Below, in pieces: positions 3,641 through 24,000 of a DNA stretch of 24,000 nucleotides; the stretch's first letter is position 1, and the number at the start of each line of letters is the position of its first letter. The stretch is from an uncultured Desulfosarcina sp. (lineage in GTDB: Bacteria; Desulfobacterota; Desulfobacteria; Desulfobacterales; Desulfosarcinaceae). Position numbers and translations under genes: made by a program. The notes under the pieces were generated by a model. That model was given only the letters and a program-made list of their open reading frames with translations. It was not told the origin of the DNA and did no database searches. Location of the stretch: positions 191,467-215,466 of the forward strand of contig CAXXOY010000009.1 of NCBI GenBank assembly GCA_963668455.2, written 5' to 3'.

Positions 3641-3654
3641 AACACCATTCCGAT

Positions 3655-8266: not shown

Positions 8267-8269
8267 ACC

Positions 8270-8329
8270 ACTGGTGAGTCAATGTATAGGCCGATGACCT
8301 GTGCCAGTTCCTCCTGAGTTGACACCAGT
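8270..8329. repeat. Imperfect inverted repeat downstream of parB (ACTGGTG(AG)TCAA ... TTGACACCAGT), a candidate partition site or transcript stem-loop
   Basis: The arms at 8270-8282 and 8319-8329 are complementary except for a 2-nt bulge. No T-run follows, so it is not a canonical terminator. It does not match the chromosomal parS consensus. Confidence 0.3.
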
Positions 8330-8398
8330 TGAAATATTTGCAAACGTGGATGTATCCTGCCGATTATGTCCACCATCAACGAAACGGAGCTCCTCCTT

Positions 8399-8686
8399 AT
8401 GGCACTAACAAAAAACGATATCGTTGAGCGTGTCTATATTGATCTCGGGTTACCGAAAAATCAGGCCATTAACGTTGTTGAATCATTGCTTGAACTAATC
8501 AAATCCGCTTTGGAATCCGGTGATGATGTGTTGGTTTCTGGTTTTGGCAAATTCTGCGTAAATGACAAGCACTCTCGGAGAGGCAGAAATCCGGCGACCG
8601 GTGAAGATTTAATTTTGCAGGCACGGCGCGTGGTCACATTCAAGTGCTCGGGGAAATTACGAGAGAAGGTTAATGGTGAATCATGA
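8399..8686 (+). CDS. ihfA: Integration host factor alpha-like (HU/IHF family) DNA-bending protein
   Basis: From the ATG at 8399 the protein reads MALTKNDIVERVY...GFGKF...RGRNPATGEDLILQARRVVTFKCSGKLREKV. This is near-collinear with E. coli IhfA (MALTKAEMSEYL...GFGNF...[31 protein letters not shown]). The track start at 8366 adds 11 aa and has no Shine-Dalgarno. Confidence 0.9.
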   Translation: MALTKNDIVERVYIDLGLPKNQAINVVESLLELIKSALESGDDVLVSGFGKFCVNDKHSRRGRNPATGEDLILQARRVVTFKCSGKLREKVNGES

Positions 8687-8772
8687 TGCTCATTCCTACC
8701 AAACCTGCTGATGGCTGAGACAATTACCTTATAATATGTTTGCCACGGTGTGTCACCCGCCCCCCTATTAAA

Positions 8773-9690: not shown

Positions 9691-10084
9691 AACTCATAAA
9701 AACCCCTTTGTAACCGATCTTGCGGCGCACCCTTTTCCGGGTGGCGATCACTCGGCCTGCCGGGACTTGGGTTGTTTTACCGGCATTATAGGCTTGTTCA
9801 AAACGCGTTGGGGCGCTTTCGACCCCCAACCGGTTAAGCGCCTCGGCCGTCAAAGAATAGAGCCCCTTGACCGGCGTCGGTGTACCGTCGAAGGGCGATG
9901 GCACGGCACGCGTGTAAAGCCCCTGGCCTATTTTCATAAGCATCCCCTTCTTCACAAGCCCCCGAAGGGCACGACCAACCTGGTCATAGCCGCCAAGGTC
10001 TTTAAAGTCGGCACGCAGAAAGACGTCGCCGCGCTTACGGTCGATACGTTTCATCAAACGTGTTTCCAAATTTTCGGTTCTCAT
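9677..10084 (-). CDS. abiEi: AbiEi-like wHTH antitoxin/transcriptional regulator
   Basis: I prefer the ATG at 10084 (MRTENLETRL), which has GAGGTG 4 nt upstream, over the track start at 10135. RGDVFLRADFKDLGGYDQVGRALRGLVKKGMLMKIGQGLYTR matches the AbiEi N-terminal wHTH pattern. It is paired with abiEii. Confidence 0.75.
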   Translation of the reverse strand: MRTENLETRLMKRIDRKRGDVFLRADFKDLGGYDQVGRALRGLVKKGMLMKIGQGLYTRAVPSPFDGTPTPVKGLYSLTAEALNRLGVESAPTRFEQAYNAGKTTQVPAGRVIATRKRVRRKIGYKGVFMSFERA

Positions 10085-10106
10085 ATTGCACCTCGCATTT
10101 AATGTC

Positions 10107-10135
10107 AACTTACGACATTTTTGAGATGATTTCAA
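10107..10135 (-). promoter_or_regulatory. Candidate sigma70 promoter for abiEi-abiEii (TTGAAA-17 nt-TAAGTT on the minus strand)
   Basis: The -35 complement lies at 10130-10135 and the -10 complement at 10107-10112, giving a leader of about 15-20 nt to the ATG at 10084. TAGTTAA direct repeats (10136-10142, 10148-10154) abut the -35. Confidence 0.35.
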
Positions 10136-10470
10136 TAGTTAATCAATTAGTTAAAACGAAAATCAGCGCGCCCCTACTTAATATTCGCTCTGGTATAATC
10201 CTCATCTCATATTGCAACGATTTGCGATATATTTTTTAACCCTTTTCGGTCCTCCTGTGTATTAAAAGAAAGATGCGTTTGAACTACTTTAAGAAAAAAT
10301 AATATTCCGTATCAAGCTGAAATATTGAATAAATCTATGATGTTTGAGTATAATCCAAAATAGAAAATAAACATATACGTAGTTTGGTTTATAAATACGT
10401 CGCAGAGAAGTAATATTTTACTTGACGATCTATGTCTTTTTCTTTAAATTTATTTTAGTTATTCGCTCAA
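10136..10470. other. AT-rich non-coding region between the divergent AbiE and ssb modules, containing promoter-like hexamers, short repeats and an IHF-consensus match
   Basis: The region is visibly AT-rich compared with the roughly 50% GC flanks and has no credible ORF. An extended -10 TGGTATAAT lies at 10191-10199, and TTGAAT-18-TATAAT at 10325-10354. AATCAATTAGTTA (10141-10153) fits WATCAANNNNTTR. Confidence 0.5.
10422..10450 (+). promoter_or_regulatory. Candidate sigma70 promoter reading toward ssb (TTGACG-17 nt-TAAATT)
   Basis: The hexamers lie at 10422-10427 and 10445-10450. AT-rich context makes chance matches likely. Confidence 0.3.
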
Positions 10471-10749
10471 TGAAATTTCTTCATTGTTCCCTCCGCCACT
10501 GAGCGGACCTCGGGATGACAGGTTTTATCCTGAACAATCCTTCTTTCAGATCCATTCATTCCTTCAATGGATCGGTGTTCGCCAATCGACCATAATGCCC
10601 AAAACGGCATAAGCCAAACCTTGGGTAAATGCTTTTCTACGACGGCCAAGCCAAACAGTAGAATTGCCAATCCGTGGTCGTGTCATATCCACACTTCATG
10701 CAACACAATTAACAACTTCCAGTAAACATTCACTAACGAGGGGCTAAAG

Positions 10750-10786
10750 CACTTGTGCGCAATTCTTCTGCTACAGGTGTTTTTTT
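10750..10786 (+). terminator. Terminator- or attenuator-like hairpin with a T7 run just upstream of the ssb RBS
   Basis: CACTTGT (10750-10756) pairs with ACAGGTG (10773-10779) as 7 bp including one G-T, with a 16-nt loop. TTTTTTT follows at 10780-10786. The ssb Shine-Dalgarno AAAGGAG starts about 15 nt later. Confidence 0.4.
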
Positions 10787-10814
10787 ATGTCCTACCAACT
10801 GAAAGGAGCGTTTC

Positions 10815-11519
10815 ATGAACAAGGCAATCATCATCGGTAGATTGGGTAAAGAAGCATTTTTTTTAAATGGTGGTGAGCAAACCGCCTGCCGATTTCAATT
10901 GGCGGTAAAGGAGACATGGAAAAACAAAAACAACGAACCTCAGGAGCGAACCGAGTGGGTCAATGTGGCTGCCTGTGGGTCCATCGCCGAACGGATGAAA
11001 GGCGTTGCTAAAGGCACGCTTGTGTTTGTTCAGGGATCGGCCAGCACAGGCAGCTACACGAAAGATGATGAAACCCGCTACTATTTCGAAATCATGGCCA
11101 GCCAGCTGGGCATTTTGCCTGCAACCGAAGAAAAATCGTTTAAAGATCTGGATCAAAATGAAATCGCCTTGGTCGGTCGTCTTGGGCAGGATCCAATGAC
11201 CCCCAAGGAGGGAATTACTCACTTCTCTTTGGCATGTAACGACTATTTCAACGGCCAGGAAACCACCCAGTGGATCAGCGTTGCCACATTCAATGGGTTG
11301 TCTGTCAATGCTGCCAGAATATTGAGCAAAGGCCGTCTGGTTTTCGTCGAAGGCAAAGTGCGAACCAGAAAATATGACAAGGATGGGCAGACCCGTCATA
11401 CCACGGGTGTTATCGCACACAAGTGGCGGGCACTGGATTCGAAGCCTAAAAAACAAGAATCAAGCGAGTATCACGAATCTGCATTCTACGGCTATGCGGA
11501 TGACGATATTCCGTTTTAA
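10815..11519 (+). CDS. ssb: Single-stranded DNA-binding protein with two tandem OB folds and one C-terminal acidic tip
   Basis: OB1 begins MNKAIIIGRLGKEA...WVNVAACG and OB2 begins EIALVGRLGQDP...WISVATFNG...GRLVFVEGKVRTRKY. The C-terminal tail ends ...YADDDIPF, the canonical SSB tip. Confidence 0.9.
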   Translation: MNKAIIIGRLGKEAFFLNGGEQTACRFQLAVKETWKNKNNEPQERTEWVNVAACGSIAERMKGVAKGTLVFVQGSASTGSYTKDDETRYYFEIMASQLGILPATEEKSFKDLDQNEIALVGRLGQDPMTPKEGITHFSLACNDYFNGQETTQWISVATFNGLSVNAARILSKGRLVFVEGKVRTRKYDKDGQTRHTTGVIAHKWRALDSKPKKQESSEYHESAFYGYADDDIPF

Positions 11520-11526
11520 CTCAACG

Positions 11527-11556
11527 CCCCTGGATCTTAAGCCCTTGGATCCGGGG
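11527..11556 (+). other. GC-rich hairpin between ssb and the primase-like gene
   Basis: CCCC(T)GGATC at 11527-11536 pairs with GATCCGGGG at 11548-11556 (9 bp, one bulge). No T-run follows. The GATCCGGGG arm resembles the P1 hairpin of the DUF932 leader. Confidence 0.35.
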
Positions 11557-11567
11557 GCTCACAACCC

Positions 11568-12359
11568 ATGAGGTTATCGATGGAACGAATCTTTCAAAAA
11601 CTCGAACGATATTTTGGCAGATGGAAAATCGGTGTGCTGAATCCGGACAGAGGACTATGGTCGCTTTCGCCTTCCGTAAATAAGTTGGGATATCTGAGGG
11701 CAATGAACGCCAGCGGCTATCACATCTTCATGAAGCCGGAGGACGAAAGCCGCTTCCTGCTTTTGGACGATATTCCGGAAAACAAATTGGCATACCAAAA
11801 AGAGTTGAAACGATTTAAGCCCGGGCGTCTGGTGGTGGAAACCAGCCCCGGAAATTATCAGATATGGATCAGGGCTGACCGAAGCATCGGCAATCCGGAA
11901 AAGAGATACTGGATCAACTTTTTCCGGGCAGATCCCGCCTGCGATCCGAACTTACGTTGGGGCCGCTGTCCGGGGTTTCGCAATTGCAAACCGAAATACG
12001 GCAAGAATGGTCGCTATCCCCTTTCCCGCCTTGTTTGGGTGGATTGGAAAAAAGCTGCCCAGATCCCGAACGTGGCAATGCCGGCAAGGCCAACAGACCG
12101 GCAGACTATCAAGGTAAAATCGATAAGCCATCACATATCGCCCCTCCCTATCCTGCGTTCCGACTATGAGCGCGGGGATGATTCGGCCACCGACTTTGCT
12201 TATGCGCTCGCACTACTTCGGCGGGGAACCGACCCGGAAGTCGTTGCCGATAGGCTGCTGCAAGAAAGAAGTAATTGGATCCACCATAAAGGCCAGCGGC
12301 GCCAGGCCGATTACCTTCAGCGCACGATCAAGCGCGCCGTTGAAATCATAAATCAATAA
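11568..12359 (+). CDS. RepB'-type (RSF1010-like) plasmid primase-like protein
   Basis: FLLLDDI ... LVVETSPGNYQIWIRA resembles the catalytic-core motifs I recall for the RepB primase family. The true start may be the second ATG at 11580, which has GAGG 6 nt upstream. This is a recall-based call. Confidence 0.5.
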   Translation: MRLSMERIFQKLERYFGRWKIGVLNPDRGLWSLSPSVNKLGYLRAMNASGYHIFMKPEDESRFLLLDDIPENKLAYQKELKRFKPGRLVVETSPGNYQIWIRADRSIGNPEKRYWINFFRADPACDPNLRWGRCPGFRNCKPKYGKNGRYPLSRLVWVDWKKAAQIPNVAMPARPTDRQTIKVKSISHHISPLPILRSDYERGDDSATDFAYALALLRRGTDPEVVADRLLQERSNWIHHKGQRRQADYLQRTIKRAVEIINQ

Positions 12360-12383
12360 AAGATCGTTTGATTCTTAAACCCA

Positions 12384-12471
12384 ACCCCAGATCCGGGGTA
12401 CCGCAATGGTTCCCAGACAGGGTTGTGTTCTCCCTATGGTTAGAACCATTGCGGCTTTATTCATAGGGAGG
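12384..12471 (+). promoter_or_regulatory. Structured 5' leader, copy A (upstream of DUF932): P1 hairpin, 12-bp P2 stem, apical anti-SD segment, SD
   Basis: P1 is ACCCC/GGGGT at 12384-12399. P2 pairs 12401-12412 with 12443-12454 as perfect CCGCAATGGTTC/GAACCATTGCGG. CTCCCTATG (12430-12438) is the exact reverse complement of CATAGGGAG (12462-12470), which covers the SD. Confidence 0.6.
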
Positions 12472-12477
12472 CAACCA

Positions 12478-13278
12478 ATGAAATCACAATTAATCCCCCT
12501 TACCAATGATCAAATCGTCGAATTGGCTCCTGCTACGGGAGCGATAAACCCACACGAAGCGGTTTCGGATCGGTATAGCTTTGTACCAACCATCGAGGCC
12601 GTCGATTTATTGAGATCGGTCGGATGGCAACCCGTGCATGTAAAGCAATCCGGAACAAGAAAAGATGATCGCAACGGTTATCAAAAACACATCATTCGAT
12701 TCATGCAGGGAGCGTTTTCAACCGAACAGGAACGCGTCGATCTGGTAATGACCAATTCCCATGATCGTGGCTGTGCGTTCCAGCTTTACGCTTCCATCTG
12801 GCGTAAAATTTGTGGAAATGGGTTAATGGTTTCCTCGAAACTGTTTAATTTTTCACATAGACATGTAGGTTTTGACTTAAAAGCCTTCTTGAATTCCGCC
12901 TACCAAATTGCCGAAGGCGCCGGAGAGATTGCCGAACAAGTCAATGATTTAAAGGCAATAGAACTATCTCCAAACGAAAAAGGCGTGTTCGCCATGGCTG
13001 CACATAAATTGGTTTATGACGATATCAATATGGCACCGATTTTGCCATCACAGTTATTAAACGAACGGCGCTATGACGATCGAGGCAATGATCTTTGGAC
13101 AACATACAATGTTGTCCAGGAGAACATAATAAAAGGAGGCATATTTGGAAGCAAGCGAAATGAAAAAGGCCATATTCGTCGGGTCAAAACCCGACCCGTA
13201 AAATCCATTGATCGGGATGTCAAACTCAACAAATCACTGTGGGTATTGACCGAAGAGATGGCCAAACTAAAAGCCTGA
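12478..13278 (+). CDS. DUF932-family protein (common in plasmid/ICE leading regions)
   Basis: The start is ATG 12478 (MKSQLIPL), with GGGAGG 6 nt upstream. The track start at 12406 would translate the structured leader. TNSHDRGCAFQLYASIWRKICGNGLMV matches the DUF932 core pattern (NSHDGS...R.vC.NG). Confidence 0.8.
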   Translation: MKSQLIPLTNDQIVELAPATGAINPHEAVSDRYSFVPTIEAVDLLRSVGWQPVHVKQSGTRKDDRNGYQKHIIRFMQGAFSTEQERVDLVMTNSHDRGCAFQLYASIWRKICGNGLMVSSKLFNFSHRHVGFDLKAFLNSAYQIAEGAGEIAEQVNDLKAIELSPNEKGVFAMAAHKLVYDDINMAPILPSQLLNERRYDDRGNDLWTTYNVVQENIIKGGIFGSKRNEKGHIRRVKTRPVKSIDRDVKLNKSLWVLTEEMAKLKA

Positions 13279-13337
13279 TTAAATAAACAGGCAATGCTGT
13301 ACGGTTCTTCAAAATATGCGTTAACTCAAATATTGAA

Positions 13338-13426
13338 TCCCCCAAATCGGGGAACCGTAAAGGTTTCCCGATGGGGATATCCTCCCTTATTCGTGGGAAC
13401 CTTTGCGGCTGACAACAGGGAGGATA
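13338..13426 (+). promoter_or_regulatory. Structured 5' leader, copy B (upstream of radC), with the same architecture as copy A
   Basis: P1 is CCCC/GGGG at 13340-13352. P2 pairs 13355-13368 with 13395-13408 (14 bp including 2 G-T). TATCCTCCCT (13378-13387) is the exact reverse complement of AGGGAGGATA (13417-13426), which covers the SD. Confidence 0.6.
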
Positions 13427-13428
13427 AA

Positions 13429-13968
13429 ATGAGCACAAAAGAGTATCGTTTCTATTCATATAAGCTGCATATGGTCAAGGAACAAGAAATCAAGTTCTTG
13501 AGTGACCAGGAAATCCACAACAGCTTCGCGGGTTCCGAAGTAATCAGAAAAGTTATCCGCCAGACTGGCCAGACAGATCGTGAAAACTTCGTAGTTGTTA
13601 TGCTGAATACAAAGCTCAAACCCATCGGTGCAAACCTGGTGTCTACCGGAAGCCTGACCCGTTCTATCGTTCAACCCCGTGAAATCATAAAAGCGGCATT
13701 GAATATGCCATGCAAAGCCTTGATCCTTGGCCACAATCATCCGTCAGGAGACCCCTCGCCATCCATGGAAGATAGGTTGATAACCTTCATGATAATGGCG
13801 TCCGCGCAACTTTTCGAAGTGGAGATTCTGGATCACATCATCGTGGATATGGATTCCGATAAATACTTATCCTTTGCGGATGAAAACATCATTAAAATTA
13901 CGAAACGTAACGTACGCTCACTGTTGGAAAAAATCTCAAATATACAAATGAATATGTGCCAGGTTTGA
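13429..13968 (+). CDS. radC: RadC-like JAB/MPN-domain protein
   Basis: The start is ATG 13429 (MSTKEYRF), with AGGGAGGA upstream. The JAMM-type motif GHNHPSGDPSPS is present, followed by ED..T and EILDHIIV. Confidence 0.9.
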   Translation: MSTKEYRFYSYKLHMVKEQEIKFLSDQEIHNSFAGSEVIRKVIRQTGQTDRENFVVVMLNTKLKPIGANLVSTGSLTRSIVQPREIIKAALNMPCKALILGHNHPSGDPSPSMEDRLITFMIMASAQLFEVEILDHIIVDMDSDKYLSFADENIIKITKRNVRSLLEKISNIQMNMCQV

Positions 13969-14018
13969 TTGGAAACGCTCTGGGCACACCATGAAGCAGA
14001 GTTGACCAATCAGACTGT

Positions 14019-14060
14019 CCGACCGTCTGTTTTTGATTTTAAAAAAAAACAGACGGTCGG
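14019..14060. repeat. Perfect 16-bp inverted repeat (CCGACCGTCTGTTTTT / AAAAACAGACGGTCGG) downstream of radC, either terminator-like or a protein-binding hairpin
   Basis: Arms at 14019-14034 and 14045-14060 are separated by a 10-nt A/T spacer. The T and A runs lie inside the hairpin rather than after it, so it is not a textbook intrinsic terminator. A smaller CAGAC/GTCTG hairpin (14011-14029) followed by TTTTTGATTTT could terminate + strand transcription. Confidence 0.6.
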
Positions 14061-14425
14061 CAAGCTTGCTTATTCCATGACTGCGCAAGAATTTATTACC
14101 GTCTGGAATAAATAGATAATCTTCAATCCTCACTGCGACCGTTCCTGTTTAAAAATGCCCTGAAAAAAACAAATTGGCGACTGACGACCATTTTTTTCGG
14201 CACACGGAAAAGGCAAAAAGGGAAAGATCGCAATTACCAAAATCCCATTCTTTGTAACCGCTGATCATCACATCAGCGTATGTATAAAGCGATTATCCTT
14301 ACCCTGTACCCGTTTCCGGGGCGTCGCCTACGGCGATGCGGGGTAAAATCGCATTAACCGAGATTCTTATTAATCCGGTGATCTCACCGTTTGATAGATC
14401 GCTATAAGATTGCAAATGAAGGGAG

Positions 14426-15388
14426 GTGGTCGAACTGATCAACTCAACGAGGACAGATACCCTGGTAATGCAAGCGATACGAGGCATAAAGAAAACGAAA
14501 TCGGGATCAACCAAAACCAGGCACAACCATATAAAAGAAGCCCGCAGATTTGTAATAACGATTCGAAAGATAGGTTATGGTGTGAAAAGATGGAAAAATG
14601 TAACCAACCTTCACGTGCAAAAAGCGGTTGATAAATGGAAGGAAGATGGTTTGAAACCGGCAACGATCAAAGAATACTTATCCGGTGTCAGAACTATTTG
14701 CAAGATCTACGATAATGATAAAATCAAACAGGACAATACACAATTCGGGATCCCCAATCGCGTGCTTGTAGACAATCGTGATAAGTCATTGCCCCAAGAA
14801 GTGTTTCAAAATGCGGTGGCAGAATTGAAGCAAAGCAACAACAGCGATGACAATAGAGTTGCTGCCCAATTGCAATTGCAACGTTATCTTGGATTACGAG
14901 TGGAAGAGTCGTGCAAATTCAATGCGCATCAAGCAGTAATGACAAATGGTAGAGTATTCATTCAGCATGGAACAAAAGGTGGAAGGGAGCGGATAATAAA
15001 CAAGCTTACCGAAAAAGGAAAAGAGGCGATTGAATATGCAAGAAAAATATCTGGAAACAGCAATCTTATCCCCAAGGATCACAGCGAAAAACAATGGATT
15101 CAAAAATATTATCGAATAACCAGAGCCAAGGGAATTTCAAAACAAGAATGCGGAGCATCAAGCCATGGATGTCGGCATGCTTATGCACAGGATCGCTATG
15201 AAGAAATAACCGGATTTAAGGCGCCGTGCAAGTTTGACTCAAAAAGAGCATTCAGGAATAATGCAGAAACAATAGCTGGCGAAAAATGGAAAAGGTTGAA
15301 TCAGGATGCACGGCAGATAATAAAAGCTGAGTTGGGCCACGGCCCGGATCGTGACGATGTGGTAAGTCAATATTTGGGCGCGATTTAA
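14426..15388 (+). CDS. int: Tyrosine recombinase / phage-integrase-family protein
   Basis: Catalytic signature: GLRVEES (Arg I), HGCRHAYAQ (H-x-x-R-H), and LGHGPDRDDVVSQYLG (LGH ... Tyr). The start is uncertain, either GTG 14426 right after GGGAGG or ATG 14468. Confidence 0.85.
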   Translation: MVELINSTRTDTLVMQAIRGIKKTKSGSTKTRHNHIKEARRFVITIRKIGYGVKRWKNVTNLHVQKAVDKWKEDGLKPATIKEYLSGVRTICKIYDNDKIKQDNTQFGIPNRVLVDNRDKSLPQEVFQNAVAELKQSNNSDDNRVAAQLQLQRYLGLRVEESCKFNAHQAVMTNGRVFIQHGTKGGRERIINKLTEKGKEAIEYARKISGNSNLIPKDHSEKQWIQKYYRITRAKGISKQECGASSHGCRHAYAQDRYEEITGFKAPCKFDSKRAFRNNAETIAGEKWKRLNQDARQIIKAELGHGPDRDDVVSQYLGAI

Positions 15389-15417
15389 AAAAGAAGTTTT
15401 TCTTGTGCAATTTAAAA

Positions 15418-15445
15418 GCCTTCGCTTGAAAGCGAGGGCTTTTTT
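15418..15445 (+). terminator. Rho-independent terminator after the recombinase gene
   Basis: GCCTTCGC/GCGAGGGC form an 8-bp stem (one G-T) with loop TTGAAA, followed by a T6 run. An A4 run precedes it, so it may act bidirectionally. Confidence 0.75.
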
Positions 15446-15884
15446 ATTTACCGGCACTGTGAACAGCAATTCTGCAAGATACTAACACCAGTGCTGCCAT
15501 AAAGAAGTAAATTAACATTAATAGGGGATTGCCGGTAATGGTAGCCACTGAATAAAACAAGAGGAAATGGATTTCGCAACCATAGATACTATGTCAGTAA
15601 GTATCTTTTACCAATTATGTGTCATTTTACACATTTCCAATAAAACTCTTACATGAATGCCACACGTCAGTCCTATTATCTTCCTTCTTTTCTTCTTATG
15701 GACAGCTTTTCAAAAACTATTTTTCATTGTTATTTTAGTATGTTTTAAGCACATCGAGTAGAATTCTTGCATTGGCATATATGTTGCGACAACAATTGAA
15801 CGCGATTCACAGTATTTATTGAAACGCAAGATAAACCAGCCCACTACATAACGGTAGGGCCAGCCTAACATACAGAGGGTTATC

Positions 15885-16790
15885 GTGGATAAAAAAAGAA
15901 ATACGAAAAAACTAATTTGTATGACGGTTGTCGGTTTAATAATGGGGGCTTTGCCGCTGTTATTATTTGATCGTTCGGATAATAATAACGCCCAAAATGA
16001 AACCATTACAAAAACAGTTCACTACCGATTTCTAATTCGCAATACGTCCGGACAGCCGATTCAGAACGCCATTTTCTATGTCCAAACTCCCATGCAGGAG
16101 ACGGGAACTCAGCGTTGCTTAACCATTGAAGCGTCCCATCCCTATGAATTGATATCGAACAAAAACGATGGTCAACTCGCCAAGTTCATATTCAAAATTT
16201 TTCCGCCCTATGCTTCAAAAACCATATCAATCCGGGCATCCTTGGCGCTCGACACCCTGCCGAATCGAATATCCGGAACCGATCCGATATTGCTCACCTC
16301 TGTGTTAGAAAATAGCGATCCATACAAAGAAGCAATGCTTGAACTCGCAACCTCGCTAAAAGCGGACACTGTGAAAGACACGGCCACCAATATTTTTAAC
16401 TGGGTTTCCAAAAACGTTAAATACACCGGGTATTCCTCGAAAGCCAAAGGCGCCAAGCGTACTTTCATTGACCGTCAAGGTGACTGCACCGAGTTTGCGG
16501 ACTTGTTTGTTGCCTTGGCATCTCTTGCAGACATTCCCGCGCGTCGAGTTTCTGGATATCTTTCCAGCGGCTCCGGCCTCCTAAAACCGGAAGCCTACCA
16601 TGACTGGGCAGAATTTTACGATGACGGTGTATGGCACATCGCCGACCCTCAAAGAAAAAACTTCGACGCCCGCTACACAAACTATATTGCCATGCAACTG
16701 GCCAGCCCGACACCCTCTACCGATCCGATTAACGGATATAGCCGTTTTTACATCGACGGTAACGGGTTGAAAGTAAAAATGGATTCATAA
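15885..16790 (+). CDS. Membrane-anchored or secreted transglutaminase-like cysteine enzyme
   Basis: The N-terminus is MDKKRNTKKLICMTVVGLIMGALPLLLF, a signal anchor. The transglutaminase-core triad context is RQGDCTEFADLFVALASLADIPARRVSGY (Cys), AYHDWAEFY (His) and VWHIADPQ (Asp). The GTG start has AGAGGG upstream, and an alternative ATG lies at 15921. Confidence 0.85.
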   Translation: MDKKRNTKKLICMTVVGLIMGALPLLLFDRSDNNNAQNETITKTVHYRFLIRNTSGQPIQNAIFYVQTPMQETGTQRCLTIEASHPYELISNKNDGQLAKFIFKIFPPYASKTISIRASLALDTLPNRISGTDPILLTSVLENSDPYKEAMLELATSLKADTVKDTATNIFNWVSKNVKYTGYSSKAKGAKRTFIDRQGDCTEFADLFVALASLADIPARRVSGYLSSGSGLLKPEAYHDWAEFYDDGVWHIADPQRKNFDARYTNYIAMQLASPTPSTDPINGYSRFYIDGNGLKVKMDS

Positions 16791-16824
16791 TCGGGAATCC
16801 AGTCCTATTACCACGGAGGGAACA

Positions 16825-19800
16825 ATGTTCAAGAACCTTTTATCGAACAACCGGCAAACTGCGTCTTTATGGGCACTGGTGTTACTTTTTGCCTTCTTCG
16901 TGTTTTTTAACGGAACGACGGTAGTTTTTGCCGACGACAGCTTATGCGCGGTTGTCAAAATTGAAATCCAACAGGAACTTACCCTTGAGCGTCAGGCGTT
17001 CGACGCCCATATGACGATCAACAACGGTCTTTCCCACATCTCGCTTGAAGATGTAAGCATAAACGTTTGGTTTACAGATGAGGCCGAGAATCCGGTATTG
17101 GCCACATCCGATCCCAACGAAACCTCCGCCAGTTTTTTCATCAAAGTCGATTCCATGACCAATATTTCCAGTGTGGATGGGTCAGGCACCGTAGCACCAT
17201 CCACTTCAGCCGATATCCATTGGATGATAATTCCCTCCCCTGGGTCTTCCAATGGATTGGAAAGTGGCACGTTGTATTATGTTGGTGCTACGCTGTCGTA
17301 TACTCTCGGCGGGGAAGCCAATATCACAGAGGTCACTCCCGACTATATTTATGTCAAACCAATGCCTACTATCGCGCTGGACTATTTTCTTCCTTCCGAG
17401 GTCTATGGCGATGACGCTTTCACTACAGAAATCGAAGCGCCGGTACCTTTTTCCCTGGGCGTTAGGGTTTCAAACAACGGAGACGGAACTGCACGTCAAC
17501 TTAAAATCGAGTCCGCCCAGCCCAAGATTGTAGAAAACGAACAGGGACTGCTTATCGGGTTTGCATTAGAGGGCAGCCAGGTAAACGGGCAACCGGCAAC
17601 CGATAGTCTGATGGTTGATTTCGGCGATATAGCGCCTGGGACCTCGGGAACTGCCCGTTGGACCATGAGCTGTACCCTCTCGGGCAAATTTACTGAATTT
17701 GAAGCGGATTTTTCCCATTCGGACGAACTGGGCGGCGAGGTGACTTCGCTTATAAATGCAGCTCAGACCCACTTTTTAGTACATGATGTTCTGGTTGATC
17801 TGGTCGGGCGGGACCAAATTCGCGACTTTCTTGCCAAGGATGGCGACATTCTGCGTGTTTATGAATCGGATAACGTGGATACCGTGGCAACCGATCTGTC
17901 CTCCCAGACAGGAATATACTACCAGGGTACCCAAAACGGCCGGCCGGTTTATAAATTCTCTATGCCCGTCAATGTTGGATTCGTATATACCCGCCTTCCC
18001 GACCCTTACAATGGCAGCAAGGTTATTTATTCAGCTGTTCGAAACGATGGAAAAGTCATTAAAACCGATAATATCTGGCTTTCCAAATCTCGGGACGAAC
18101 AGAGCTGGGATTATTACATCGACCTGTTCGATGCAAACACCACCGGTGAATACACCGTGGTGTTCGATGATCCGGAAGCCACTCCCCAGGCACCGGTGCT
18201 TCAATACATAGCCAATGTCATTGCCATTGAAGGCGAACGCATTTCTTTTGTCTCCATGGCCAGCGATCCGGATGGCACCATTCCATCCTTGTCCGCCGCC
18301 GTGCTGCCGGCTGGGGCTACATTCACCGATCAAGGCGACGGCACAGGTGTTTTTGACTGGAAAACGGTGGTCGGCCAGGCCGGCTCCTACGGGATTACTT
18401 TTAAAGCCTCCGACAGTGCGTTGTATAATACCCAACGGGTAATTCTGACCATACGTTCCATTGACGATACAGATGGCGACGGTATGAGCGACGCCTGGGA
18501 GATGGCGAATTTCGGTACTCTGGACCGCGATGGCACCGGCGACTTCGACGGCGATGGAATCAGCGATCTGGATGAATACCTGGCCGGTTCCGATCCCACG
18601 GACGAAGACCATGCTCCCACCGTGCCGGCAATTATCTCCCCCTTGCCGGGTGAATCAGTATCTGCTTTAATCCCGGCGCTGGAAATCGAAAACAGTACCG
18701 ATGCAGACGATGATGAAATTTCTTATCAATTTGAAATCTATGCAGATGACCAATACAGCACTTTGGTCGCTGCCAATGATAATGTCCCCCAAACCATGGA
18801 CACCACTTCCTGGACGCTTACAGAGGAGCTAACCGAAAACCAGAACTATTTCTGGCGGGTACGGGCCACGGACGGCTACAGCTTCAGCCAATGGGCCTAT
18901 GGAAGCTTCTTTGCCGCAGGCGAGAACGACTCGCCACAAGGAGTGGCTATTAGTTTCCCACAGGACGGTTTTGACGTCGATTCCCTGAATCCCTTGTTGG
19001 AGGTAACCGGCATCTCCGATCCCGACGAGGAAGAGCTTACCTGTTCCTTTGAAGTATATGAAGACATGGCCATGACCGCCCCTGTTGCAGAAGTGCATGA
19101 TCTGATTGTCCAGGCTGACGGCGTGGTTGATTGGGCAGTGAATGTAGAGTTATCGGACAACACAACCTATTTCTGGCGTGCAGTAGTGACCGATGACCAA
19201 GGTGCGGTTGAAGAAACATCTTTAGCCTCTTTTACGGTCAATACGAGTAACCACGCCCCAAACGTTCCGATCATCAATTTTCCTGCCTATGGGGAAGATG
19301 TATCGTCAACATCGGTGGAACTATCGGTGGTCAATGCACAGGACACCGATGGCGATATCCTTGACTATTATTTCGAAATCGATACGGACCCCGGTTTTAA
19401 CAGCTCTGAGAAACATGTTTTCGATTTCATAGAAGAAGGCGTGGATATAACATCCTGTCCGGTCTCAAACTTGAGCGACAACACCACCTACTATTGGCGT
19501 GCCATGGCCACGGACAACCTTTCCTCAAGTAGATGGGTAAACGGTAGTTTTTTCGTCAACACCGCCAATAATGAACCGAATGCCCCCGCCTTGAAGAACC
19601 CTGGCGAGGAAGCCTGGGTAGGCGTACTAAAGCCGAACCTGATCCTTGCTGATGGCGTTGATGTGGACAACGATTCCTTGAGCTATCGATTTGAGGTGTA
19701 CTCTGATTCTAACCTGGAAAATCTGGTCGCATGGGCTAAATCCGAATCCTGCGATTGGACGGTGGTCACCGAGCTGACCGATCAAACCCGTTATTACTGG

Positions 19801-22800
19801 AGAGCCCGCGCAATCGATGAGCATGGCGACGAAGGCGATTGGAGCTGCACGGCATCCTTCTTTGTAAAAGAGGAGGAACAGCCGCAACCTGAAGTGATCA
19901 CAGTCAATGTTTCCACCGACAAGGGTGATGGGCTCGAAAACATTAAGGTTTACGTATTTACCGAGGCCGATAGATACACAGGCGTCAGTGCCACAACGGA
20001 AACGGACGGAAGTGCGATTTTCGATGTAGATGCATTGGAACCGGGCGTGTATAAGTTCAGAGCCGACTACCTGCGCAGCAAATTCTGGTCGGACGCCGTA
20101 TCCATCCCGGAAACCGCAACCGTTCCTATACAGATAGACGTGGAAACCGTGACCGTCAATGTCGGTACGGCGTTCGGAACGGTGTCCGGAGCAAGGGTTT
20201 ATCTCTTCTCGGAATCGGGTAAATATCTTGGCGTTTATCTGGAAACCGACGCCAATGGCCAGGTATCCTTTGATCTTCCCGCTGGGGAAACCTACCTCTT
20301 CAGGGTCGATATTCTACGCAACCAATATTGGAGTGCCGTAACCACCATACAGTCTGGTGAAAGCACTGCTGTTGACGTCGATGCAGGCGGCGGAAAGCTC
20401 CAAGTTGTCGTGAAAAAGGATGAAACGGCGACTATCGAAGGGACAAAAGTCTATCTTTTTAACGACAGCGAGAAATACCTTGGTGTTTGTGCCACCACGG
20501 ACGATGCCGGCACCGTGGAATTTAATGTCACCGAAGCCGATTATAAAATAAGGGTCGATTATCTGGGATACAAATATTGGAGCGAGACGCTTCATATAAC
20601 GACCGATACAGTTGAAACCATGGTTATTCCACACCAAGAAGTCAGGTTGACACTGCAAGGTCGCTATCAGGAAATCGACACACCAATATCCGGCATCAAA
20701 AGCTACCTTTTCACCTCGGACAGTTCCTATGTGAAACAGTACCTGGAAACCGACGATAATGGCCAGGCCACTTTCTACCTCCCCGAAAAGGAATACAAAA
20801 TCCGCTCGAATGCTTTCAAAAGCCAGTATTGGTCGGAGCCCTTCATCTGGGAAGACCCGGTAATAACCATTCCCATGGCCGAGGCACGGATCACGGTGGA
20901 CGCTGCCGGCGTTCCCAAGGAGAATGTGCCTGTCTACGTGTTTAACGCGGATGGAAACTACCTGGGTATCAAGGACGTCACCGACGAAAACGGTCAGGCG
21001 ATCTTCCGGATTCCTGAAGGCGAATATGCATTTCGCGCGGACTATCTGAAAAACAAATTCTGGGCGGAAAGCTGCACAGCGGTCGCCGATATGGTTAACG
21101 ACTTTAGCGTATCGCTTGGCGGAGGCACCTTTCAACTGACTGTCATGGACGATGACGATGCGCCGATTTCAGGTGCTAAGTGCTACGTTTATAATGAAAA
21201 CGACGCCTATGTCGGCCTAAAGGCAGCCGCCGACGATAATGGCGTGGCAAGTTTCGATCTTGCCAATGGTACTTACCGTTTCCGCGTGGACTATTTAGGG
21301 CATCGTTTTTGGAGCGACTCCGTCACGGTAACCGGCAATGCTGAAGAAACCATGGTTATCGCAAAATCCATGGTTTGGGTCCGTGTTCTCATGGCGGACG
21401 GCGTCGCCACCGGAGCCAAAGTTTATCTTTTCTCCGAATCCGATAAATACCTCGGGCAATATGCCGTAACCGACGATAATGGCGAAGTTGAATTCGACCT
21501 GCCCACCGGCGTTGTCTTTAAATTCCGGGCCAACATTCTTGGCAGCCAGTACTGGAGCGAAGACATCACCGCTTCGGACGATTTATCCACCGTGACAATC
21601 GATGCCGGCGGCGGCCGGCTGCAAGCAACGGTTCAAACCGACGATGGAACGCCTTTATCCGGCCTATCGGCATATCTCTTCAGCGAAGAAGGAAAATACC
21701 TTGGCCTTTCCCAAACCACGGATGCATCCGGTGATATAGCCTTCACCGTTCCCGAGGGCTCATACCGCATTCGCGTCAACTATCTGGGATACACGTTCTG
21801 GGAAGAAGATATAGAGGTTATTGACGACACCACGGTTTCGTTCATCATCGCAATTCAGCCGACAACGATCACCGTTGCCGGCGGCTACCAGGGTGTGGAT
21901 ACGGCACTTGAAGACATTCGTGTTTATCTTTTCAGTCCCACCGGGAAATATTTGGGTCTTTCCGGTTATACCGACGACCAAGGCACGGTAGTCTTCGATC
22001 TCCCCAAGCAAGACTATATGGTTCGAGTAGATTTGGCGGGAACACAATTCTGGTCCGATCCGTTTACCTGGCAGGATACCACCGTGAGAATTCCCATGAC
22101 CGAAGCCGTGGTAACGGTGACCGGAGCCGGCCTTCCCACCGCGAGTTGTAATGTCTACCTTTTTTCTGCCGATAATACTTACCTGAAAAGCAAAATAACT
22201 ACCGACGATCAAGGGTCGGTCCGTTTTCATTTGCCTGCGCAAACATATAGATTCCGAGCGGATTATCAGGCCAAACAGTACTGGAGCGGAGATGTTGTTC
22301 TGGAAGCGGATGCTGAAAACCCGGTACTGATCAGCGTCGGCGGTGGAAATGTCACACTTGGCGTTAAAAAGGACGATGGTACAGCCATTGCCGGCATCAA
22401 CTGTTATGCGTTTGCCGATAGCGGCTCTTACCTTGGCCTTAAAGGCGCCACTGGCGATGATGGGCAGGTTGCCTTCAGCCTGGCTGACGGTGATGTGAAA
22501 TTCCGCGCGGATTATTTTGGCTACAAATACTGGAGCGACATCCTCTCTGTTCCCGGCAACCAGAACCAAACCATTACCATCGAGCATTCAGACATCTCTG
22601 TTACTTTTCAGGGGCGTTATCAGGGAACAATTCAGCCCTTGGAAGGGCGTAAGGTGTATTTGTTTACGCCTTCCGGCCGCTACCAGGGGCAAAACCGGGT
22701 TACCGATGCCGAAGGGCATGTCAGCTTCAATTTGCCAGACCAATTGTATCAGGTTCGCTGTGATGAATTGCGCCGGAAATATTGGTCGGAGTCTTTTCAA

Positions 22801-23076
22801 TCGCGGGATACCACGGTCACCGTTCCCATGGGACAGGCTGTGATCGATGTGACCTTTTCCGGTGAACCGGCCGAGAATGCCAGGGTTTATCTGTTCAGCG
22901 ATGAGAATCGTTACCTGGGCCGATACGAGACCACCGACAGCGATGGGACCGTTCGATTCATGCTCCCGGTTGGTTCGTATCTTTTCCGCACAAACCTGGA
23001 TGGCAAACAAAGCTGGACAGATATCACGGAGGTAACCGCTGACCTGGAAACTGTCGCCGGCGTGGCGATGGAATAA
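16825..23076 (+). CDS. Giant secreted multi-domain repeat protein (2083 aa)
   Basis: GGAGGG precedes the ATG. The signal peptide is MFKNLLSNNRQTASLWALVLLFAFFVFFNGTTVVFA/DD. A roughly 410-aa N-terminal region carries a CARDB-like segment (VRVSNNGDGTARQLKIE). An Ig/cadherin-like domain spans about aa 455-545, and Asp-rich TSP3-like Ca-binding repeats span aa 546-596. Four beta-sandwich repeats of about 105 aa follow, then 13 repeats of 77-84 aa resembling carboxypeptidase-regulatory or Cna-B-like domains. I recognised no C-terminal sorting signal. Confidence 0.9.
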   Translation: MFKNLLSNNRQTASLWALVLLFAFFVFFNGTTVVFADDSLCAVVKIEIQQELTLERQAFDAHMTINNGLSHISLEDVSINVWFTDEAENPVLATSDPNETSASFFIKVDSMTNISSVDGSGTVAPSTSADIHWMIIPSPGSSNGLESGTLYYVGATLSYTLGGEANITEVTPDYIYVKPMPTIALDYFLPSEVYGDDAFTTEIEAPVPFSLGVRVSNNGDGTARQLKIESAQPKIVENEQGLLIGFALEGSQVNGQPATDSLMVDFGDIAPGTSGTARWTMSCTLSGKFTEFEADFSHSDELGGEVTSLINAAQTHFLVHDVLVDLVGRDQIRDFLAKDGDILRVYESDNVDTVATDLSSQTGIYYQGTQNGRPVYKFSMPVNVGFVYTRLPDPYNGSKVIYSAVRNDGKVIKTDNIWLSKSRDEQSWDYYIDLFDANTTGEYTVVFDDPEATPQAPVLQYIANVIAIEGERISFVSMASDPDGTIPSLSAAVLPAGATFTDQGDGTGVFDWKTVVGQAGSYGITFKASDSALYNTQRVILTIRSIDDTDGDGMSDAWEMANFGTLDRDGTGDFDGDGISDLDEYLAGSDPTDEDHAPTVPAIISPLPGESVSALIPALEIENSTDADDDEISYQFEIYADDQYSTLVAANDNVPQTMDTTSWTLTEELTENQNYFWRVRATDGYSFSQWAYGSFFAAGENDSPQGVAISFPQDGFDVDSLNPLLEVTGISDPDEEELTCSFEVYEDMAMTAPVAEVHDLIVQADGVVDWAVNVELSDNTTYFWRAVVTDDQGAVEETSLASFTVNTSNHAPNVPIINFPAYGEDVSSTSVELSVVNAQDTDGDILDYYFEIDTDPGFNSSEKHVFDFIEEGVDITSCPVSNLSDNTTYYWRAMATDNLSSSRWVNGSFFVNTANNEPNAPALKNPGEEAWVGVLKPNLILADGVDVDNDSLSYRFEVYSDSNLENLVAWAKSESCDWTVVTELTDQTRYYWRARAIDEHGDEGDWSCTASFFVKEEEQPQPEVITVNVSTDKGDGLENIKVYVFTEADRYTGVSATTETDGSAIFDVDALEPGVYKFRADYLRSKFWSDAVSIPETATVPIQIDVETVTVNVGTAFGTVSGARVYLFSESGKYLGVYLETDANGQVSFDLPAGETYLFRVDILRNQYWSAVTTIQSGESTAVDVDAGGGKLQVVVKKDETATIEGTKVYLFNDSEKYLGVCATTDDAGTVEFNVTEADYKIRVDYLGYKYWSETLHITTDTVETMVIPHQEVRLTLQGRYQEIDTPISGIKSYLFTSDSSYVKQYLETDDNGQATFYLPEKEYKIRSNAFKSQYWSEPFIWEDPVITIPMAEARITVDAAGVPKENVPVYVFNADGNYLGIKDVTDENGQAIFRIPEGEYAFRADYLKNKFWAESCTAVADMVNDFSVSLGGGTFQLTVMDDDDAPISGAKCYVYNENDAYVGLKAAADDNGVASFDLANGTYRFRVDYLGHRFWSDSVTVTGNAEETMVIAKSMVWVRVLMADGVATGAKVYLFSESDKYLGQYAVTDDNGEVEFDLPTGVVFKFRANILGSQYWSEDITASDDLSTVTIDAGGGRLQATVQTDDGTPLSGLSAYLFSEEGKYLGLSQTTDASGDIAFTVPEGSYRIRVNYLGYTFWEEDIEVIDDTTVSFIIAIQPTTITVAGGYQGVDTALEDIRVYLFSPTGKYLGLSGYTDDQGTVVFDLPKQDYMVRVDLAGTQFWSDPFTWQDTTVRIPMTEAVVTVTGAGLPTASCNVYLFSADNTYLKSKITTDDQGSVRFHLPAQTYRFRADYQAKQYWSGDVVLEADAENPVLISVGGGNVTLGVKKDDGTAIAGINCYAFADSGSYLGLKGATGDDGQVAFSLADGDVKFRADYFGYKYWSDILSVPGNQNQTITIEHSDISVTFQGRYQGTIQPLEGRKVYLFTPSGRYQGQNRVTDAEGHVSFNLPDQLYQVRCDELRRKYWSESFQSRDTTVTVPMGQAVIDVTFSGEPAENARVYLFSDENRYLGRYETTDSDGTVRFMLPVGSYLFRTNLDGKQSWTDITEVTADLETVAGVAME
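18613..19872 (+). repeat. Four tandem coding repeats of about 105 aa inside the giant gene
   Basis: A recurrent pattern is seen: P-x-x-P ... acidic cluster (NSTDADDDEISYQFEIY / ISDPDEEELTCSFEVY / AQDTDGDILDYYFEID / GVDVDNDSLSYRFEVY) ... NTTY(F/Y)WRA ... W..GSFF. The (F/Y)WR anchors fall at aa 676, 783, 890 and 991. Confidence 0.8.
19888..23073 (+). repeat. Thirteen tandem coding repeats of 77-84 aa with higher-order three-unit modules
   Basis: The anchor motif (K/R)VY(L/V)F...YLG...TD..G.V.F.LP.G.Y.FR.DY....YWS recurs at aa 1041, 1124, 1208, 1292, 1369, 1452, 1532, 1615, 1699, 1776, 1859, 1943 and 2020. Unit subtypes (GGG-type, RYQ-type, PM.EA-type) recur in the same order three times. Confidence 0.8.
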
Positions 23077-23094
23077 ACCATTGGAGAATAATCG

Positions 23095-24000
23095 ATGCTT
23101 TCAACAGGAAAACCATGGGTGGTGGCAAGGGGAACCAAATGCTCTTCATTAATAGCTGTCGTATCCTTGTTTTGCATGGCAGCCACCATCCATGCGTCAA
23201 CCATTCCCAATGAGGTAATCGTACGCAACACCAAAACACTGGATGCCGATCTTGTCGCGTCCTCCGAATCGCTTATCGGCGAACGCGACAACAAAACAAA
23301 ACCAGTATTTATCGATGTCAGAAGCCCCCGGGACTTCGATGCGCTGCACATTTCCGGGGCCATGAACATCCCTCTTCATTTCATTAAAACCAAGACCTAC
23401 CTGAAGTCCTCACCATTGGTACTGGTGGACCAGGGCCTCTCATTCCATCGGTTGGCACCCACCTGCCGAAACCTGAAAAAAGCGGGTTTCGATGCCCGCA
23501 TCCTCGAAGGTGGCATGCGGGCCTGGTGCGTTCACGGTGGTCAAATAACAGGCGAACGGGTTCGCCAGATAGACTATGGGAACATATCGGCGGCGGATTT
23601 TTTCAAGGAGAAGGACTATTCGAACAGGATTGTCTGTGATGTATCCTCTACTCTTTCAGCAACCTCCAGGCAATTGATGCCGTATGCCACCCATCTTCCT
23701 TTGGGGGGAACTTCCAAGGACAAAACAAAAGCGGCTGCTGAATTCAAGTCGGCAAAATCCGGGTGGAACACGGCAACCATTATCGTGGTCAATGAAGATG
23801 GTGAAGGATACCGGGACGTGCAACACGCCTTCAAGCAAGCCGGCCTGAAAAACGTATTTTATCTCGATGGCGGCATACGTGCTTACGAGAAATACCTGGA
23901 TGGAATGGTTCGTTCATGGTCTCCGCGCGCACAGCGGATGAAAACCGATAGTCCATGTGCAAAATGCGGCGATACCGCCATGACCTCACAGGACCGGTAG
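23095..24000 (+). CDS. Secreted tandem rhodanese-homology-domain protein with no catalytic Cys in either domain
   Basis: GGAG precedes the ATG, 18 nt after the giant gene stop. The signal peptide is ...SSLIAVVSLFCMAATIHA/ST. Domain 1 reads FIDVRSPRDFDALHISGAMNIP...PLVLVDQGLSFHR...ILEGGMRAW. Domain 2 reads TIIVVNEDGEGYRD...FYLDGGIRAY. The active-site position is Asp in domain 1 and Asn in domain 2 instead of Cys. The stop TAG falls at 23998-24000. Confidence 0.8.
   Translation: MLSTGKPWVVARGTKCSSLIAVVSLFCMAATIHASTIPNEVIVRNTKTLDADLVASSESLIGERDNKTKPVFIDVRSPRDFDALHISGAMNIPLHFIKTKTYLKSSPLVLVDQGLSFHRLAPTCRNLKKAGFDARILEGGMRAWCVHGGQITGERVRQIDYGNISAADFFKEKDYSNRIVCDVSSTLSATSRQLMPYATHLPLGGTSKDKTKAAAEFKSAKSGWNTATIIVVNEDGEGYRDVQHAFKQAGLKNVFYLDGGIRAYEKYLDGMVRSWSPRAQRMKTDSPCAKCGDTAMTSQDR

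Follow-up and report, generated by a model that had tools for sequence, protein, structure and literature searches.

A conserved cassette of a transglutaminase-like enzyme, a pseudo-rhodanese and giant secreted proteins in Desulfosarcina and other bacteria

What joins a transglutaminase-like enzyme, a giant secreted repeat protein and a tandem rhodanese that lacks its catalytic cysteines in one tightly spaced gene cluster, and what might these proteins do for the cell? This question is raised by a 24,000-nt stretch of DNA from an uncultured Desulfosarcina sp. (GenBank assembly GCA_963668455.2, contig CAXXOY010000009.1; the whole stretch is called the window below), in which the three genes fill positions 15885-24000 and a conjugative backbone occupies positions 1-15388. 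We refer to the genes and their products as TG (transglutaminase-like), GIANT (repeat protein) and RH (rhodanese); their coordinates and features are collected in Table 1. A first-pass annotation of the window had described them as an envelope operon, and its reading frames and spacing were reproduced: the genes are co-oriented, the intergenic gaps measure 34 nt (TG-GIANT) and 18 nt (GIANT-RH), and each start is preceded by a purine-rich Shine-Dalgarno-like motif (AGAGGG, GGAGGG and GGAGA for TG, GIANT and RH, respectively). A signal or anchor sequence had been assigned to all three products; a hydrophobic N-terminal segment is found in each of them and also in 91–97% of their relatives, which supports their export to the envelope. 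We found that the trio recurs in gene order and with tight spacing across phyla, dozens of sediment and sulfur bacteria being among its carriers, which is more than chance, and that it represents a widespread, uncharacterised cell-envelope cassette whose chemistry we infer.

Whether the three families keep company elsewhere was assessed by tblastn and open reading frame (ORF) clustering on 80 loci, which were fetched out of 384 TG relatives in GTDB species genomes (individual loci are denoted L001 and so on). RH was found in 61 and GIANT in 59 of them; many of the remaining loci are short or truncated contigs. Among the 28 loci with enough flank, i.e. at least 3 kb upstream and at least 9 kb downstream of TG, RH is present in 24, GIANT in 24, a fourth family described below in 25 and all of them together in 20, and every one of the 28 encodes at least one giant partner. 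The co-occurrence of the three families, on which the first-pass annotation had made its reading depend, is thus borne out. On the chromosome of Desulfosarcina ovata, TG (297 aa), GIANT (2082 aa) and RH (288 aa) follow each other at distances of 30 and 9 nt, the surroundings being non-mobile, and the gene of a 3718-aa RHS protein comes next. Elsewhere the order varies: TG-GIANT-RH-X, RH-TG-GIANT, RH-TG-X and X-RH-TG-GIANT were all seen (X being the fourth protein), with RH orthologues downstream of GIANT or upstream of TG. At the RH-TG junction, RefSeq annotation places the genes with a 4-nt overlap in Methylomonas and 2 nt apart in Eleftheria. Such permuted orders point to selection acting on linkage and not to common inheritance of a single arrangement. 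Most carriers belong to the Desulfobacterota (Desulfosarcina, Desulfobacula, Desulfospira, Desulfosudis, Desulfoluna, Desulfatiglandales, Syntrophaceae and an Olavius symbiont); others are Thiomargarita, Parabeggiatoa, a Thiotrichaceae metagenome-assembled genome, a betaproteobacterium, Methylomonas and Eleftheria. ORF clustering of 81 loci revealed no widely conserved neighbour beyond TG, RH, GIANT and the fourth protein. That the genes are accidental neighbours, or cargo hitch-hiking on the adjacent conjugative element without a shared function, is hardly credible: a conjugative backbone with an integrase does lie immediately upstream, and a scan of the window detected no sigma-70-like promoter before TG, but linkage in permuted orders extends over dozens of genomes and at least two phyla and includes chromosomal contexts without mobile genes. 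Across these loci, the view that the cassette genes form a functional unit is supported.

One contig of the Olavius symbiont (L030) carries two TG-RH pairs in tandem (7245-8889 and 9794-18356), one of them a stand-alone TG and RH and the other part of a complete TG-GIANT-RH set. This arrangement suggests a duplication of the enzyme-partner pair.

The three genes are not the whole cassette. In relatives, the next gene past RH encodes a protein of 3700–4650 aa with a Sec signal and Rhs/YD repeats of the polymorphic-toxin type, and the ‘three-gene’ extent of the first-pass annotation turns out to be an artefact of the window edge, as the last codon of the window is the RH stop codon. In the closest RH relative with a downstream flank (L084, 62% identical) the next ORF, at least 827 aa long, belongs to this fourth family, and judging from such comparisons the contig of the window very probably continues past RH with a gene of the same family. 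The N-terminal part of the fourth protein is variable (beta-helix/NosD, CARDB, Big_5, Big_13, fn3, Big_7, Glucodextran_B and Calx-beta domains), and wherever its C-terminus is visible it consists of RHS repeats, an Rhs core (PF03527/TIGR03696) and a divergent tail of 130–200 aa; these Rhs features were seen in L001, L061, L075, L079, L091 and L093. The protein reaches 4648 aa on the Methylomonas plasmid pLM6, and in Eleftheria it is split into an immunoglobulin (Ig) protein of 2121 aa and an RHS protein of 1529 aa. As the central ~1500 aa are 41–45% identical among the proteins of Eleftheria, Methylomonas and the Desulfobacterota, we regard the fourth proteins as one orthologous family across phyla. 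With this partner present, the reading moves closer to a polymorphic-toxin or surface-display locus; for the matrix-fibre system proposed by the first-pass annotation no specific support was obtained. In Eleftheria, an ankyrin-repeat gene of a typical immunity type lies 3′ of the RHS gene. Because some of the Rhs partners have no adjacent immunity gene, the toxin reading of the fourth protein is a tentative one.

In two loci the giant Rhs gene runs straight into RH or GIANT (L061 8534-8598 and L079 5898-5982), leaving no space for an immunity gene. The tails of these proteins are Gly-rich and hydrophobic (glycine-zipper-like) or Cys/Gly-rich, and by their sequences they may not be classical antibacterial toxins.

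What kind of enzyme is TG? It matches the Transglut_core profile (PF01841) with 73.6 bits (cut-off 23, E 1.9e-20), and the GDCTEF, HDWAE and IADP motifs from which an intact Cys-His-Asp core had been proposed are all there. The three catalytic residues C201, H239 and D254 are invariant in 81 of 81 TG relatives. In the AlphaFold2 (AF2) model (pLDDT 85.9) a beta-sandwich precedes the TG core, and the best match in a fold search was 3ISR (Foldseek E 2.6e-17; best profile match E 4.5e-17) at 14–18% identity. About 109 full-length homologues are contained in the protein collection. A neighbour-joining tree of TG, compared with gene arrangement for signs of enzyme-substrate co-evolution, was star-like and uninformative. 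TG is predicted to be an active-looking thiol enzyme that is anchored in the membrane and faces the periplasm.

RH, by comparison with PF00581 (64.5 bits, E 1.3e-17, two stretches), is a tandem rhodanese whose signal peptide ends in ...IHA|ST and whose nearest sequence match in the PDB is the thiosulfate sulfurtransferase 1YT8. It had been called ‘Cys-less’, which applies to the active sites, where D112 and N233 stand in place of the expected catalytic cysteines, but not to the protein, which holds seven cysteines including a family-conserved CxxC at its C-terminus. Among 56 RH relatives, the first site is occupied by N, D, G or H and the second by N, D, S or T, and a cysteine occurs at neither site in any of them; the C-terminal CxxC(P/G) is kept in ~50 of the 56, often at the very end of the protein (e.g. 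...KKCxxCP-end). By its sequence, RH is catalytically dead as a rhodanese, and for this reason it is probably a binding partner, in line with the binding module proposed by the first-pass annotation. It is very unlikely that RH is a working periplasmic sulfurtransferase in a cluster for sulfur metabolism, with GIANT as an unrelated neighbour. The carriers are indeed biased toward sulfur-cycling bacteria (sulfate reducers and sulfur oxidisers), the rhodanese fold is there and a role of the conserved CxxC as a sulfur or metal carrier is conceivable in principle; however, the loss of both active-site cysteines is family-wide, a methanotroph and a betaproteobacterium from soil have the cassette too, and RH is syntenic with TG and the giants, not with sulfur-metabolism genes.

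The CxxC tail may act in redox chemistry, bind a metal or form a mixed disulfide with Cys41, the invariant cysteine of GIANT described below. Several RH orthologues are longer, with 400–500 aa (L061 8598-9902; also L005, L035 and L037), and carry an extra N-terminal Ig-like segment (DUF1573/ASH-type) ahead of both rhodanese domains.

GIANT is a beta repeat array as had been proposed, with two calcium-binding DxDxDG loops, four Fn3-like and thirteen CarboxypepD_reg repeats behind its N-terminal region. The TSP3_bac profile (PF18884) is matched with E 3.2e-5 and 24.1 bits, slightly under the 25-bit cut-off, and some GIANT homologues match Dockerin_1 (PF00404). Each of the Fn3-like repeats closes with [YF][YF]WR (aa 675, 782, 889 and 990). 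The CarboxypepD_reg array is the variable distal part, missing or different in many homologues, and the C-terminus of GIANT falls inside its thirteenth repeat. Models for LPXTG, PEP-CTERM, type IX secretion, autotransporter and RTX/type I secretion system (T1SS) signals gave no match to GIANT in Pfam or NCBIfam at E<=0.01, which agrees with the earlier statement that no sorting signal is recognisable. Orthologues of 2035–2500 aa occupy the equivalent position in relatives.

The part of GIANT that stays constant is the module directly behind the signal peptide (N-module). With 50–69% identity across loci, versus 31–47% for TG and 25–51% for RH, it exceeds every other part of the cassette in conservation. 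Behind an AxA-like site, mature GIANT starts with [DE][DE][ST][LIV]-C-A-x-V-K-I-E-I-x-Q-E-L-T-L-E-R-Q-A-F-D-A, in which C41, Q50 and Q57 are invariant and K45 is conserved to at least 90%; C41 was present in 40 of 40 sequences. A lipoprotein cysteine was considered for C41 and rejected: the preceding residue is L, I or V, and the AxA-like signal peptidase I site lies four residues upstream. A word-indexed search returned at least 483 N-module homologues, many of them in proteins of only 600–800 aa, and a full phmmer scan (E<=1e-30) returned 1765 cluster representatives. In the host proteins, which measure 430–7485 aa, the start of the module falls almost always at residue 30–45, right after the signal peptide, and the module has no sequence match in Pfam, NCBIfam or the PDB. 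The N-module is the real constant of the giant protein and a large unannotated family. Its AF2 model has a pLDDT of 83.5, and the first 20 mature residues are the most conserved and yet modelled with low confidence; a stretch that is conserved but poorly modelled fits a site of interaction, processing or modification. A fold search with the N-module gave generic Ig-array matches only (template modelling score, TM, <= 0.21) and no functional lead.

The N-module was also met in an internal position. On the Nostoc sp. PCC 7120 plasmid pCC7120alpha (L092, 3913-19806) a 5297-aa ‘Calx-beta domain-containing protein’ contains it at about aa 2700 with 35% identity; transposases lie on the flanks, and TG and RH are not nearby.

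A periplasmic cysteine enzyme of transglutaminase fold that adjoins a giant repeat protein with a conserved N-terminal module recalls the release of adhesins of the Lap/Dvh type, in which a LapG-like protease cuts the retention module of a T1SS adhesin under the control of cyclic di-GMP. The Desulfovibrio protease DvhG is membrane-anchored as well (PMC13090378), and LapG is among the fold matches of TG. We nevertheless judge it most improbable that the cassette is such a system: TG does not match the LapG family (PF06035) at E<=0.01 and LapG comes only at rank 21 of the fold search, GIANT has a Sec signal peptide and neither a C-terminal T1SS signal or RTX repeats nor a [T/A/P]AAG cleavage site, and the ORF clustering yielded no extra conserved neighbour, LapD, LapE and LapBC not having been searched directly. 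Since the features that define the family (PF06035, cleavage site, T1SS) fail, membership in LapG/LapA was rejected.

How, then, might the proteins work together? The reading that we prefer is that TG and RH, as a pair, service the giant proteins in a surface or toxin cassette of the Sec/T2SS (type II secretion system) type, and we find belief and doubt in it evenly balanced. All four proteins would be exported by Sec. TG would stay in the inner membrane through its uncleaved transmembrane helix and pair with RH, which, having lost sulfurtransferase chemistry, would serve as adaptor or regulatory subunit. The putative TG-RH complex would act on the giants in the periplasm by proteolytic processing or covalent tethering, most likely at the invariant N-terminal segment of the N-module. 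A type II-like secretin pathway would then carry the giants to the surface, where their variable distal arrays and the Rhs toxin cargo would be on display. This mechanism is suggested because cleavage by LapG/DvhG and anchoring by the transglutaminase (TGase) domains of RHS toxins serve as precedents. As for the chemistry, proteolytic processing or release of the giants by TG is a possibility that we would put forward tentatively and with more doubt than confidence.

The Gln and Lys residues of the N-terminal motif invite another chemistry, in which TG would be a true transamidase that polymerises N-module proteins head to tail through Gln-Lys or Gln-amine bonds or anchors them, sortase-like, to peptidoglycan or an envelope protein, with RH as a CxxC redox partner or adaptor. 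With its triad intact throughout the family, TG would be equipped for such a reaction, and Q50 and Q57 as possible acyl donors and K45 as a possible acceptor lie in a segment where hydrophobic and polar residues take turns, as in an exposed beta-strand, and whose packing in the monomer model is poor. The generic matches of the N-module fold search include donor-strand pilins and isopeptide-bonded Gram-positive pilins, and an anchoring role has been proposed for TGase domains in Sec-dependent RHS toxins (PMC3482391). However, these fold matches are generic Ig arrays of the low score given above, the bacterial PF01841/BTLCP enzymes that have been characterised as acting on giant surface proteins are proteases (PMC13090378), and loci that have no GIANT and no Q/K motif still keep TG. 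Covalent transamidation of the giants thus appears unlikely to us, if worth keeping in sight. A more far-reaching form of it, for which the chances are slimmer still, would be a diderm envelope machinery in which TG and the CxxC pseudo-rhodanese transamidate giants at the N-terminal motif for sortase-like anchoring or polymerisation, and in which the resulting scaffold presents or fires a Sec-exported Rhs toxin independently of the type VI secretion system (T6SS), Tc toxins and contact-dependent inhibition (CDI).

The outer-membrane step of the proposed route leans on a minority of loci. The genes of a complete type II secretion set, namely gspG, gspF and gspE and those of pseudopilins and of a secretin with tetratricopeptide repeats (TPR), are interspersed with the cassette genes in Eleftheria terrae, and T2SS genes also adjoin the cassette in L018, L058 and L074. 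This linkage points to a T2SS-type route and agrees with the Sec/T2SS-dependent class of RHS toxins (PMC3482391). Secretins with N-terminal TPR repeats and a C-terminal cohesin are encoded in L093 (Eleftheria terrae NZ_CP106952.1, 10660-13044) and L074 (2901-5042), and next to the Methylomonas cluster (L094, 233-823) a stand-alone cohesin protein is encoded that has a PEP-CTERM-like tail. It is conceivable that the giants dock onto the secretin by cohesin-dockerin contacts through their TSP3/dockerin-like calcium loops; as a general feature this link was rejected, since it occurs in only a few loci and is too sporadic.

Several observations weigh against the preferred reading that TG and RH service the giants. 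Contact of TG with either giant is a step that we infer. No activity is known for 3ISR, the structure most similar to TG, LapG is a distant fold match (rank 21 with E 7e-4 and again rank 27 with 2e-3), and the 2083-aa GIANT contains no LapG-type [T/A/P]AAG site. The N-terminal motif is restricted to GIANT: it is not in the Rhs-type partner, nor in the eleven loci that encode TG (with or without RH) and an Rhs-type protein but no GIANT. TG can therefore not rely on the GIANT motif alone. Conversely, N-modules without TG or RH nearby were found in Desulfonema magnum and Nostoc. T2SS genes adjoin the cassette in only ~4 of 85 loci, no plausible immunity ORF follows the Rhs gene in L061 and L079, and the fourth gene itself is not visible in the window.

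Table 1. Location of the cassette genes, their domains and key residues, and the adjoining features of the window
Feature	Nucleotides	Residues	Strand	Remarks
Tyrosine integrase	14426-15388			end of backbone, nearest TG
AT-rich spacer	15389-15884			GC ~0.38; between integrase and TG; probable backbone/cassette boundary
TG	15885-16790	301 aa	+	GTG start; transglutaminase-like
TG transmembrane anchor	15903-15968	7-28	+	N-terminal
TG beta-sandwich		40-123	+	AF2 model
TG core		134-300	+	AF2 model
TG catalytic C201	16485-16487	201	+
TG catalytic H239	16599-16601	239	+
TG catalytic D254	16644-16646	254	+
GIANT	16825-23076	2083 aa	+	ATG start; secreted all-beta protein
GIANT signal peptide		1-36	+	Sec-type
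GIANT N-module	16933-18174	37-450	+	three or four tandem beta-sandwich domains
He_PIG Ig domain	part of 18190-18624	456-543	+	PF05345, E 2.3e-5
TSP3/dockerin-like segment	within 18190-18624, after He_PIG		+	DxDxDG Ca loops at aa 548 and 573
Four Fn3-like repeats	18625-19911	~105 aa each	+	PhoD_N, Pur_ac_phosph_N and Ig_Rha78A_N matches
Thirteen CarboxypepD_reg repeats	19912-23073	~80-84 aa each	+	transthyretin-like; PF13620, E 3.3e-56
RH	23095-24000	301 aa	+	ATG start; secreted tandem pseudo-rhodanese
RH domains		~65-153 and ~165-270	+	tandem rhodanese
RH C-terminal CxxC	23956-23967	288-291 (C288/C291)	+	family-conserved

The trio had also been described as lying next to a mobile element and as possibly mobile itself. 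Pfam-type profile searches of the window place a conjugative backbone directly upstream, with F-type TraG_N, a TraD/TraG-type coupling protein (T4CP), ParA, ParB, HU, SSB, RepB primase, DUF932 and RadC; a relaxase is not visible within the window. The backbone may belong to an integrative conjugative element or to a large plasmid; the contig from which the window was taken measures about 235 kb. The adjacency of the integrase is weak evidence of mobility, because a strong intrinsic terminator (15414-15443, 13-bp stem and T run in a terminator scan) and ~440 nt of AT-rich spacer intervene. The spacer is the probable boundary of mobile-element backbone and cassette. As only one flank of the cassette lies in the window, the one with integrase, terminator and spacer, the arrangement is equally compatible with a cassette just outside the element. 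The possible mobility finds its support elsewhere: plasmid-record copies exist in two Methylomonas koyamae plasmids and one Eleftheria record (PLSDB type: non-mobilizable), and on pLM6 of Methylomonas koyamae the cassette sits between mobI and mobH/traD of an F-type transfer system. In L001 and L082 the cassette is chromosomal, and the nearest relatives with visible context show ordinary chromosomal neighbourhoods. A megablast search of positions 15400-24000 against plasmids gave zero matches. That the cassette is horizontally mobile is supported by its spread over Desulfobacterota, Gamma- and Betaproteobacteria.

Two further features of the upstream part were recorded. On the minus strand, positions 8773-10135 encode an AbiEii nucleotidyltransferase toxin (PF08843, E 4.6e-30) and an overlapping DUF6088 gene, which is a type IV toxin-antitoxin or abortive-infection pair within the backbone. 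A second AT-rich non-coding stretch lies at 10136-10814; in 1-kb bins around it and around the spacer the GC content is ~0.38–0.40, versus ~0.50 elsewhere. Neither a tRNA nor an Rfam family that could act as attachment (att) site or regulator was found in the spacer or anywhere in the window. An anti-phage role of the cassette was considered and rejected, as PADLOC gave a single 18-bit match at chance level.

Beyond the first-pass annotation, the fourth Rhs/YD partner, the N-module, the CxxC tail of RH, the T2SS genes in a few loci and the plasmid copies are new. The cassette offers a conserved, testable accessory set for how Sec-exported Rhs/YD proteins of Gram-negative bacteria get processed, anchored and delivered without T6SS or Tc, and it places a tandem rhodanese that is dead throughout its family and ends in a CxxC tail in a functional context for the first time. 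The N-module, with its many cluster representatives, marks a whole class of giant secreted proteins. The carriers, among them Desulfobacterales, Thiomargarita, Parabeggiatoa, the Olavius symbiont and methanotrophs, are environmentally important, often aggregate-forming or filamentous and genetically little studied; three cultured ones, D. ovata, M. koyamae LM6 and E. terrae, open the way to experiments.

A description of the cassette was found neither in the literature nor in Pfam, NCBIfam or PADLOC, as the first-pass annotation had anticipated for the trio; one apparent literature match (PMC13274458) was a coincidental table listing. The nearest parallels are of several kinds. LapG and DvhG, transglutaminase-like proteases, cut the N-terminal modules of giant adhesins (PMC13090378). 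The cassette resembles the Lap/Dvh systems in setting a periplasm-facing Cys-His-Asp enzyme of transglutaminase/papain fold beside a giant beta-rich surface protein; the Lap enzyme targets the conserved N-terminal module of its giant, and DvhG is held in the membrane as TG is predicted to be. It differs in that TG belongs to PF01841 and not to PF06035, that GIANT follows the Sec route and not T1SS and has no di-alanine site, and that a dead tandem rhodanese and a giant Rhs protein are added.

RHS toxins that depend on Sec/T2SS and bear a TGase domain immediately behind the signal peptide, for which an anchoring role was proposed, have been described by Zhang, de Souza, Anantharaman, Iyer and Aravind (2012; PMC3482391). 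A TGase-fold domain, RHS proteins with signal peptide, bacterial Ig domains and presumed Sec/T2SS export are common to both. In those toxins, however, the TGase domain forms one polypeptide with the toxin and no longer has its triad, whereas TG is a separate protein of 301 aa with an invariant triad, and its partners are a pseudo-rhodanese and, as a rule, a second giant that carries the N-module; rhodanese has no mention in PMC3482391. With regard to structure, 3ISR, a ‘putative cysteine protease’ of Cytophaga hutchinsonii from structural genomics, and the periplasmic domain of Pseudomonas TgpA (6G49/6G4H) have the same layout of beta-sandwich and TG core, but at 14–18% identity the match does not settle the chemistry of TG.

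The fourth partner shares its RHS repeats, a core with a DPxGL-type motif and a variable tail with the Rhs toxins of T6SS and Tc (ABC) systems and with teneurin-like YD proteins. It differs from them by an N-terminal Sec signal and by 2000–3000 aa of beta-helix/Ig arrays before the shell, and no PAAR, VgrG or TcA-type domain was found in Pfam scans of fourth-partner proteins. Some inactive rhodanese domains serve as interaction modules beside papain-fold thiol peptidases, for example in USP8 and in yeast Ubp4/5/7. The combination of a dead rhodanese with an enzyme of Cys-His-Asp peptidase fold is the same in RH and TG, but the eukaryotic proteins are cytosolic fusions, whereas TG and RH are separate exported bacterial proteins, RH with a CxxC tail. 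Measured against these systems, the cassette is built from parts of known kinds, while their conserved combination, the N-module and the CxxC pseudo-rhodanese are new.

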